Sequence record: OQ870567.1
DNA: 40,594 nucleotides
Origin: Escherichia phage SR04
Strand: one strand, 5' to 3'
The notes under the pieces were generated by a model. That model did no database searches. It was given only the letters and a program-made list of their open reading frames with translations, and was not told the DNA's origin. The first letter of the stretch is position 1; every line of letters begins with the position of its first letter. A program made the translations under genes and the position numbers. Below are positions 10,086-36,183 of this stretch, one piece after another.

Positions 10086-10108
10086 AGTCCCTATAGTGAT
10101 AGTTAAGG
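10086..10108 (-). promoter_or_regulatory. Phage RNAP promoter (phi13-like)
   Basis: Minus strand TTAACTATCACTATAGGGACT about 35 nt upstream of the gene 13 ATG. Confidence 0.7.
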
Positions 10109-13067: not shown

Positions 13068-13157
13068 TTAATGGTCATAGGGGCTAGACGGCGAGCTGGA
13101 CAGCAGGTACGCCCAGAATAAGACGAATAGTGCTAACCCTGTGTAAATAAGGACCAT
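13068..13157 (-). CDS. Small hydrophobic ORF (29 aa, MVLIYTGLALFVLFWAYLLSSSPSSPYDH) between Tphi and gene 11
   Basis: Hand translation; AAGGAGG four nt upstream of the ATG; single predicted transmembrane segment. Not in the ORF track because it is under 60 aa. Confidence 0.3.
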   Translation of the reverse strand: MVLIYTGLALFVLFWAYLLSSSPSSPYDH

Positions 13158-13171
13158 AGTCCCTCCTTAAG

Positions 13172-13212
13172 CAAAAACCCCTCAAGCACCCGAAGGCACC
13201 CAAGGGGTTTCA
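13172..13212 (-). terminator. Tphi-like late terminator for phage RNAP
   Basis: Minus strand AAACCCCTTGGGTGCCTTCGGGTGCTTGAGGGGTTTTTGC forms a G-U-rich hairpin followed by a U-run, closely resembling T7 Tphi; it sits right after the 10B stop. Confidence 0.75.
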
Positions 13213-13213
13213 A

Positions 13214-14526
13214 TTAGTTTGTGAAAGATACGTTGAAGGAACGCACAGGCGAACCGTCATACCCAACAATCACCAGACCTTCCACGCCAGAGGTGGCCTT
13301 GAAGTAGAGACTGTTGGTTCTACGGGAGTAGCTAACACCATCAGGCGTAGTCACCTCAAGCAGCGACCAATCGGTCACGTCTGAAAGCTCAGGGAAGTCA
13401 ACCTTCAAGCTGGTTCCCACCGTAGAACTGTATGTCTCTAAGGTAGGACCCTCTGTAGAGAGGGCCTTAAAGGTCGTTAACCCGCTGACGCCGCTGTGAA
13501 AACCAGTGCGCCTGCCGCTTCTGGACGCAGACCGCCGTGACCCATAGCGTATTTACCAACAATCAGGTCGCCCTGAGCATCGACGTCACGGTCACGTTCC
13601 AGCGCCAAGTCACGCAGCTTCACAGTACCCACAGCAGAACGGTGAGAGAACAGACCCACAACGTTGTCCATAGCAACTTTAACGTCGCCAGTAGCAGTTG
13701 CCGGGAATGCGTGTTTCTGGCCGGAAGCGATAGTGACACCATCAGCACCACGGGTCTCACCAGCACCACCCTGTACCAGATGCGGAACTTCAACAACAAC
13801 GAAGCCCATCACGTTACGGATGTTACCAGTCTCTGGGTCAATCAGCGCAGCATAGTTAGCAGCGTTAGGCATCAGAGCCGCAAGGATTGCAGAGTAGTTG
13901 TCCGGCGTGGTGTAGAAGTAACGGTCGCCAGCAGGAACGTAGTTGGAGGTCAGCTTCGCACGAGCAATGGTCAGTTGACCGATGATTGCTTCGCCCAGTT
14001 TAGCCGGGGTGTCGAGGTCAGCTTTCTTACCAACTTGTAGGACGGACGCAGTACCCAGACCAGCGATGTTCTCGTTGGATGCAGCCGGGAGGTTACACAG
14101 GATCGCCATTTCAGCCAGCACCGCACCATCAGCAGCGATAGCCAGAGCTTCGCCCAACTGGTTGGAATACTCGCCAGCCACGTCGTAGTGGTTCATCGCG
14201 TCTTCAATGTCGAAAATCATCACATCGGCAGTCAGCAGACCATCAATGGTAATCACTTTCTCGGTATGTTTGATACCTTTACGCTTATCGGACAGTCGCT
14301 CACCAGGAGCCAGATACACACCAGATGTGCGACCCATGACCGGGAACTGAGCAGACTTACCGTTCTGAATGGTACGTACAATATGCTTGTCAGCAGTTAC
14401 AGAGCGGCGAGTGAATGCGGTCAGGACTTCACCAGCAAATACCTTCAGGAACAACGCCAGAGCGTCGGAACTGGATTTACCTTTACCTTGGTCTGTACCA
14501 ATTTTCTGACCCGGAACGTTTGCCAT
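13214..14526 (-). CDS. Minor capsid protein 10B, made by -1 ribosomal frameshift at G_GTT_TTC (about 13498-13504); roughly 437 aa
   Basis: The -1 frame is open from the slippery site to the stop at 13214 (track ORF 13214-13420 is in that frame); the heptamer lies 7 codons before the 10A stop, paralleling T7 10A/10B. Confidence 0.55.
13477..14526 (-). CDS. Major capsid protein 10A (349 aa)
   Basis: Sits immediately downstream of the phi10 promoter with a strong RBS; size and position as T7 gp10A. Confidence 0.9.
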   Translation of the reverse strand: MANVPGQKIGTDQGKGKSSSDALALFLKVFAGEVLTAFTRRSVTADKHIVRTIQNGKSAQFPVMGRTSGVYLAPGERLSDKRKGIKHTEKVITIDGLLTADVMIFDIEDAMNHYDVAGEYSNQLGEALAIAADGAVLAEMAILCNLPAASNENIAGLGTASVLQVGKKADLDTPAKLGEAIIGQLTIARAKLTSNYVPAGDRYFYTTPDNYSAILAALMPNAANYAALIDPETGNIRNVMGFVVVEVPHLVQGGAGETRGADGVTIASGQKHAFPATATGDVKVAMDNVVGLFSHRSAVGTVKLRDLALERDRDVDAQGDLIVGKYAMGHGGLRPEAAGALVFTAASAG

Positions 14527-14628
14527 ATGATAATTCTCCTATTCAATTGAAAGATAAAGTTTATTACTTACTGTATGCCCAATCCGTATGGACTGAAGTA
14601 ATAGGGAAACCTTTAGTCTATCTCTTGG

Positions 14629-14651
14629 TCTCCCTATAGTGATAGTTTAGT
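14629..14651 (-). promoter_or_regulatory. Phage RNAP promoter phi10-like (strong late promoter)
   Basis: Minus strand CTAAACTATCACTATAGGGAGACC; the TATAGGGAGACC start region is as at T7 phi10. Confidence 0.8.
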
Positions 14652-18436: not shown

Positions 18437-18459
18437 AGTCCCTATAGTGATAGTTTAGT
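18437..18459 (-). promoter_or_regulatory. Phage RNAP promoter (phi6.5-like)
   Basis: Minus strand CTAAACTATCACTATAGGGACT. Confidence 0.7.
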
Positions 18460-36015: not shown

Positions 36016-36160
36016 ATGCTACATACCTCCTGTATCTATGGTCGGTGACTATCTGTATTGGAGGGATTATGATTAATATCACCTCCTCTATAGGGAGACT
36101 TAGAGTCTTATCTATATGCTAACTTTTAGTCGGCATACTATAAGGTCCCCCTAGGTCCCC

Positions 36161-36183
36161 CATCCCTATAGTGATAGTTAAGT
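36161..36183 (-). promoter_or_regulatory. Phage RNAP promoter (phiOR-like) between the terminase/HNH genes and gene 19.5
   Basis: Minus strand TTAACTATCACTATAGGGATGGG. Confidence 0.7.

Follow-up and report, generated by a model that had tools for sequence, protein, structure and literature searches.

The −1 frameshift of gene 10A/10B in phage T7 was reportedly described by Condron, Atkins and Gesteland in 1991. The frameshift product of T7, 10B, is put at about 10% (PMC1635266), and the G_GU of T7 gene 10 is listed as an intermediate between the hexamer and heptamer sites (PMC5009743). A CCCC located in the T7 terminator, more than 200 nt downstream, is implicated in the frameshifting (PMC5009743). 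Similar arrangements are described for other phages. [quoted passage not shown] The 10B extension of T3 and phiYeO3-12 is Ig-like, according to Fraser et al. 2006 as cited in PMC5009743 and PMC13320782. For the Kluyvera phage Kvp1, the 10B peptides were detected by mass spectrometry of a virion band, and the slippage was assigned to TTTTCA (PMC2579914).

The window considered here is the whole 40,594-nt sequence of Escherichia phage SR04 (OQ870567.1), a complete-length 40.6 kb T7-like phage genome, which is read on the reverse strand; all features given below are located on this (−) strand. It shares about 95% identity with the Escherichia phages phiHAO1-1, Zappy, and vB_EcoP_F over 94–98% of a 25-kb query, and its gene 10 region is 97% identical to that of phage SHAK9454. 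These four phages belong in or next to Kayfunavirus, and by the same sequence similarity the window is assigned to Kayfunavirus. The end of its gene 10 is best explained as the programmed −1 ribosomal frameshift known from T7-like phages, occurring in this case in a coliphage of the K1F-like group (Kayfunavirus), with a probability of roughly 0.93.

Gene 10 and its shift site in SR04

Gene 10A (13477..14526), identified in the list of open reading frames, encodes the major capsid protein of 349 aa in the zero frame. Its C-terminus is ...GALVFTAASAG, followed by the TAA stop at 13479..13477, which is codon 350. The protein matches the Pfam family PF21703 (Gp10A-like) with E 4.8e-105, the 347-aa capsid chain of the PDB entry 9vvq, deposited as 'Minor capsid protein', with E 1e-215, and the T7 10A structure 2xvr with E 1e-145. 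Judged by these matches, the gene 10A product is a clear homologue of T7 gp10A. A putative phage-RNA-polymerase promoter, the equivalent of phi10, is recognizable in the sequence upstream of the gene (14627..14650); its core TCACTATAGGGAGA is matched exactly at 14642..14629, and with two or fewer mismatches this core has 5 matches in the window against 0.36 expected. The Shine-Dalgarno sequence of gene 10, AGGAGA, is located at 14540..14535.

The shift site G_GTT_TTC (13504..13498) is assigned from the sequence, from its conservation, and from the match to T7 and K1F. It covers codons 341–343 of 10A (Leu-Val-Phe), the phase of GGTTTTC being CT[G GTT TTC]. The −1 frame, read from the C of TTC (13214..13498), contains 94 codons and the TAA at 13216..13214. 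The two frames overlap by 73 nt, and the heptamer lies inside the overlap in the correct phase. The predicted 10B consists of codons 1–343 of 10A and the 94 codons of the extension.

The first-pass annotation had read this locus as a programmed −1 frameshift of the T7 10A/10B type, and at the level of sequence its predictions all hold. The heptamer stands 7 codons before the 10A stop, as proposed (TTC is codon 343 and the stop codon 350), and the −1 frame does end with a stop at 13214. The size of roughly 437 aa suggested for the minor capsid protein agrees exactly with 343 + 94 = 437 for the predicted product. A Tphi-like hairpin, expected right after the 10B stop, is present as a 17-bp hairpin that begins 2 nt later. 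The long open run of the −1 frame past the slip is also there, and only its length had to be corrected, from about 96 to 94 sense codons.

Coding character and predicted fold of the extension

The extension was compared with that of 7 relatives by the Nei-Gojobori method. In the −1 frame, dN/dS was 0.11–0.22 in six of the seven comparisons and 0.41 in the least diverged one; the other two frames gave values of about 0.6–3.7 where these were computable. Linker codons 8–26, a stretch of 19 codons that runs from the 10A stop to the GTG at 13420, the first possible start, have a pN/pS of 0.28 in the −1 frame versus 1.8–1.9 elsewhere, and the equivalent Przondovirus linker has a pN/pS of 0.25 in the −1 frame. 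By these ratios, purifying selection acts on the extension in the −1 frame alone, and this includes the linker, which is upstream of any start codon. The tblastn search with the 94-aa extension returned matches in 454 phage records, in every case immediately behind the capsid gene, with identity decreasing to 41–46% in phages of Klebsiella (Przondovirus), Pectobacterium (Pektosvirus), and Dickeya (Ningirsuvirus). Protein homologues of the extension are present in four genera, which are Kayfunavirus, Przondovirus, Pektosvirus, and Ningirsuvirus.

The extension is predicted to be an Ig-like module of about 75 residues, carried on a flexible linker of about 20 residues. The linker part, residues 1 to about 19 (13442..13498), was delimited by AlphaFold and pN/pS and contains no start codon; its residues 1–16 have an AlphaFold pLDDT below 50 and are predicted to be disordered. 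Residues from about 20 to 94 (13217..13441) are modeled by AlphaFold2, from an alignment of 40 sequences, as an Ig-like beta-sandwich of seven strands with a pLDDT of about 90. In the Foldseek search, this model was matched best by the Ig-like domain at the C-terminus of gpV, the tail tube protein of lambda (2l04), with E 3e-3 and TM 0.55; the matches also include capsid decoration proteins from N4 and from a Staphylococcus jumbo phage.

The extension matches phrog_7473 of PHROG, a family with the function given as unknown (E 3e-37). No Pfam family was matched at E <0.1, the Big_2, I-set, and FN3 families included, and no sequence relative of the extension was found in the PDB. Matches to carboxypeptidases, which appeared in the PDB and Pfam searches, are sub-threshold noise. 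The profile search in 1.84 billion representative proteins returned, beyond phage fragments, only remote matches to long proteins of tandem Ig-like repeats, which are of the Big_2, Big_1/invasin, or BACON type. In relation to the class of phage Ig-like domains represented by T3 10B and the lambda gpV type, the extension shares the Ig-like fold by prediction and falls outside the Big_2, I-set, and FN3 families by sequence. By analogy with what is proposed for other phage Ig-like domains, this domain is most likely a weak accessory adhesion module.

The downstream reading frame could alternatively be a separate small gene with its own initiation, for example at the GTG at 13420, giving a product of 68 aa that is not fused to the capsid protein. 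The ORF with this start does exist (13420..13214), and the records of relatives contain CDSs of 68 to 87 aa in this place, named 'hypothetical protein' or 'minor capsid protein', one of them with a predicted ribosome-binding site. However, there is no Shine-Dalgarno sequence of the GGAG or AGGA type within 15 nt upstream of the GTG at 13420. The called starts of the small ORF fall into six different alignment columns across phages and are absent in some of them, so that no initiation codon is conserved. The 19 codons before the GTG, with the pN/pS given above, are also coding in the −1 frame, which stays open back over the shift site in every one of the 69 loci compared (see below). In the predicted fold, the Ig-like domain begins at residue 20–22 and the GTG corresponds to residue 27, so the 68-aa product would be deprived of its first beta-strand. 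A separate gene is thus held to be quite improbable. Of the other ways to reach the extension, a +1 shift leads into a frame with a stop after 3 codons, and readthrough past the 10A stop in the zero frame would continue for 12 codons. Because of the coding, start-codon, and frame evidence taken together, independent initiation, readthrough, and a +1 shift are poor explanations.

Conservation of the site and candidate stimulators

Considered as a string, the heptamer is not over-represented, since GGTTTTC occurs 3 times on both strands of the window versus 3.9 expected; on the coding strand it occurs once. The probability of an open frame of 94 codons is about 1e-2 to 1e-4 and depends on the null: the figure of 1.5e-4 uses the stop frequency measured here in the −1 frame, and about 1e-2 is an estimate from a stop frequency of 3/64. 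The off-frame runs past the stop of other genes were uninformative as an empirical null, because the next gene often occupies that frame. Tested element by element, the arrangement is unimpressive against chance, and its significance, as far as the compared sequences go, is in the position, the phase, and the conservation.

The comparison of loci covered 14 annotated in GenBank and 57 from IMG/VR, and the conserved set spans T7, K1F, Kayfunavirus, Przondovirus, Pektosvirus, and Ningirsuvirus. With the exception of T3, an in-frame GTT_TTC is located a few codons before the 10A stop in all 69 loci with a readable end of the capsid gene, and the stop follows 3–6 codons after TTC. The preceding base is G in 64 of them, C in 3, and A in 2. 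Among 58 distinct sequence contexts, Val is always encoded by GTT and Phe by TTC, whereas the third position of the neighboring Ala, Gly, Pro, and Glu codons is freely variable. GTT accounts for 12 of the 30 Val codons of this 10A. All relatives examined show an overlap of the −1 ORF with the end of 10A, and this ORF remains open across the shift site in each of the 69 loci. Several relatives carry CCT GAA (Pro-Glu), which makes a TGA in the −1 frame and cuts the overlap to 31–40 nt. The shift in these phages is therefore confined to about 10 codons or fewer, and within these codons no slippery motif other than GTT_TTC was found.

The same conservation bears on a possible slippage of the phage RNA polymerase on the T run, which would produce some mRNAs lacking one base or having two extra, with no ribosomal shift. 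The TTTT homopolymer of the site is compatible with it, and both mechanisms would give the same protein; the sequence alone does not distinguish them. Four T's are, however, far below the run lengths that are established for productive transcriptional slippage (PMC5009743). The conserved codon phase of GTT_TTC, and mostly of the preceding G as well, is relevant to tRNA re-pairing and not to the slippage of polymerase, and the literature regards the homologous event in T7 as ribosomal (PMC5009743, PMC1635266). Polymerase slippage is considered very improbable, even more so than the separate small gene. An indel artefact of assembly or sequencing, with the true gene being one 437-aa ORF or the downstream frame being meaningless, would be suggested by homopolymer indels as a common sequencing error, but it is practically excluded because the same two-frame arrangement recurs in 69 loci from two collections (GenBank and IMG/VR) and several genera, the extension is clearly coding, and T7 biology requires the 10A product.

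An RNA element follows directly after the extension. The Tphi-like intrinsic terminator (13169..13211), recognized by folding, consists of a 17-bp stem with the UUCG loop (13211..13174) followed by a U-tract. The hairpin has a dG of −25.2 kcal/mol with z −4.0, its arms are the same as those of T7 Tphi (AACCCCTTGGG...CTTGAGGGGTTTTTG), and the 5′ arm contains CCCC. In nearly all relatives the Tphi-like element is located 2–13 nt after the 10B stop and is conserved in both sequence and position. Long-range pairing was considered as an explanation of the CCCC effect in T7, but between this 5′ arm and the first 30 nt beyond the shift site the RNAduplex energies of nine phages, the window and T7 among them, did not surpass those of shuffled sequences; no complementary partner was found near the site, and no G-run is conserved there.

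Other candidate stimulators were sought closer to the site. In the window, no stable structure starts 5–9 nt after the site. The upstream GG is unconvincing as a Shine-Dalgarno-like stimulator, as it comes from a conserved Gly codon. The MFE fold contains a two-part local hairpin (13436..13472), which is a weak candidate. It begins 25 nt 3′ of the shift site and consists of the lower stem CUUUAAGG/CCUUAGAG, a 5-nt bulge, the upper stem CCCUCU/AGAGGG, and the loop CUAC; its MFE is −19.8 kcal/mol with z of only −1.6, a value that is not significant by itself. In ZCEC02 and EcpYZU01 this hairpin is partly kept and partly re-registered. RNAalifold of the Kayfunavirus set gives a weak consensus of −8.5 kcal/mol, with the pairs mostly in protein-conserved codons. 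Rfam matched no family to the region, the sole match being a chance snoRNA with E 0.26.

Structures after the site differ from one group to another. In Przondovirus phages, a stronger hairpin of 18 bp begins 19 nt beyond the site, and two of its pairs are compensatory, through substitutions that change the amino acid. Stable hairpins are present in Kayfunaviruses of the EV136 type (z −2.6 to −3.9), the stable structure of T7 begins 4–5 nt after the site (z −2.2), and in K1F and PP47 no stable hairpin was found after the site. A structural stimulator may exist as an element that is not uniform across the relatives, and it is not claimed for the window. The invariant TAA-NN-ACCTTTA foot may be part of the hairpin element. 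The hairpin could also act together with the terminator, which would be partly melted by the 10B ribosome stopping 2–13 nt upstream.

Two modestly new proposals are seen as possible rather than probable. The phrog_7473 module may represent an unclassified Ig-like family, which phages of at least four Studiervirinae genera would display on their capsids through the T7-type shift and which would adhere to the host capsule, mucus, or surfaces. The hairpin 19–25 nt 3′ of the site may be a stimulator with non-canonical spacing.

Frameshift model and comparison with known systems

In the model of the programmed −1 frameshift, most ribosomes would stop at the TAA at 13479..13477, giving the 349-aa major capsid protein. 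In a minority of cases, the ribosome would hesitate when GUU in the P site is bound by tRNA-Val and UUC in the A site by tRNA-Phe, and would slip back by one base. In this movement, UUC to UUU would re-pair fully, and GUU to GGU at two of three positions. The presence of C or A before GUU in some genera fits a slip driven from the A site. The slipped ribosomes would read 94 more codons up to the TAA at 13216..13214. Since residues 1–343 are common to 10A, the resulting 10B is expected to co-assemble into the shell, where it would bear the linker and the Ig-like domain on the outside of the capsid. From homology with T7, K1F, and Kvp1, we infer the ribosomal nature of the shift, its efficiency, the incorporation of 10B into the virion, and the help of downstream RNA (CCCC and/or hairpin). 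The literature searched gave no proteomic or ribosome-profiling evidence for the phages with this extension family.

The observed arrangement is real, was correctly interpreted by the first-pass annotation, and is already known, being annotated in the close relative Peacock. What is added beyond this is modestly new: a predicted Ig-like family outside Pfam, common to four genera, which fits the established picture. The finding opens no new question. It has a practical side, as most records of the clade split 10B into the capsid gene and a spurious 'hypothetical protein' of 64 to 87 aa, and the correct annotation is the joined 437-aa minor capsid protein. Phages of K1F type serve as scaffolds for display and therapy by means of g10b, and the natural 10B of this sub-clade, predicted to carry a folded domain at the surface by way of a flexible linker, points to a site where display is tolerated. 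The locus is a further case of Ig-like domains grafted onto phage structural proteins through frameshifting.

All features of the T7 gene 10 frameshift that are testable by sequence were found in the window, namely the capsid homology, the heptamer with its phase, the overlapping −1 ORF, and the coding extension. Both phages have a homologous capsid gene in which the identical G_GUU_UUC precedes the 10A stop by a few codons and stands in the identical phase, and in both the −1 extension ends just before Tphi, with CCCC in its 5′ arm. The differences concern what follows the slip. The T7 extension has 56 codons after the slip, is not homologous, and is non-Ig, whereas that of the window has 94 codons and is predicted to be Ig-like. 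The distance from the site to the terminator is about 290 nt in the window versus about 180 nt in T7, and the structure that starts 4–5 nt after the site in T7 has no counterpart in the window.

K1F, the type species of Kayfunavirus, has the same 10A C-terminus up to ...AGALVF, the same heptamer, and the same terminator sequence. Its extension, in contrast, has 48 codons after the slip and is T7-like, without the Ig-like domain. In T3 and phiYeO3-12, a −1 shift at the end of the homologous capsid gene adds a single Ig-like domain, and the sizes are close (433 aa for T3 10B and 437 aa here). The T3 site is nevertheless different, C_CCA_AAG with lysyl slippage, and its Big_2-type extension is unrelated in sequence to that of the window (hhalign probability 0.3%). 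Kvp1 is similar in the slippage on a U run at Phe, but it belongs to another genus and has a shorter, unrelated extension. The closest system is Peacock (MK903279), with the gene 94% identical at the DNA level and the extension 97% identical. Its QEG09703 is a joined 437-aa minor capsid CDS with a note on −1 frameshifting that refers to Citrobacter phage CR8, and between Peacock/CR8 and the window there is no material difference. Thus, the same recoding site carries a different cargo depending on the lineage, short and non-Ig in T7 and K1F and predicted to be Ig-like in this clade.

A conserved motif and hairpins 3′ of the shift site

The motif TAA-NN-ACYTTTAR, which was defined post hoc, occupies the same position in 60 of 72 loci and lies at 13467–13479 on the minus strand of the window. 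It occurs once per locus, 16–19 nt 3′ of the frameshift heptamer, and is present in Kayfunavirus, K1F and Przondovirus. The hairpin that follows the shift site has this motif as its 5′ foot. Among 38 distinct Przondovirus sequences, the 18 nt AGCGTAAATACCTTTAGT are unchanged, synonymous positions included, and this invariance persists even in sequences whose TAA has ceased to serve as the 10A stop.

The Przondovirus loci (L011 and L032–L070) carry an 18-bp hairpin approximately 19–63 nt after the shift site, in which two compensatory base-pair changes are found: A-U to G-C in 12 sequences and C-G to U-A in 10 sequences. Both pair changes arise via non-synonymous substitutions in the 10B linker (...SARTVTPSE / SARVVTPPE...), and this pattern suggests that RNA structure is under selection within the extension ORF.

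Possible origin and variation of the capsid extension

Four proteins of the representative library (P0129, P0130, P0132 and P0134) contain 3–9 repeated stretches that are hit by the extension-domain profile. These proteins are large, 400–1650 aa, and also contain Big_2, Big_1/invasin or BACON domains. This points to an origin of the capsid module among adhesin repeats, either bacterial or phage.

In one relative, L026 (IMGVR_UViG_2974604219_000001, about 1660–1800), the extension departs from the family past residue 53 and continues directly into the gene 11 ribosome-binding site, and the Tphi-like terminator after gene 10 is absent. Either a deletion or recombination produced this arrangement, or it is an assembly error.

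Promoter copies and the region before gene 11

The phage promoter core TCACTATAGGG is matched five times in the window, against 0.36 matches expected. One match, located before gene 10, is exact; the other four core matches have two mismatches each and lie at 10086–10099, 18437–18450 and 36161–36174 on the minus strand and at 36085–36098 on the plus strand.

The stretch that separates gene 11 from the Tphi-like terminator holds a hydrophobic 29-aa ORF (MVLIYTGLALFVLFWAYLLSSSPSSPYDH) at 13068–13157 on the minus strand; a strong Shine-Dalgarno sequence, AAGGAGGG, precedes it by 6 nt. Some relatives (101136BS1 and phi1_146013) have the ORF annotated as a hypothetical protein; others (Peacock and ZCEC02) lack it, and their terminator is followed directly by gene 11.
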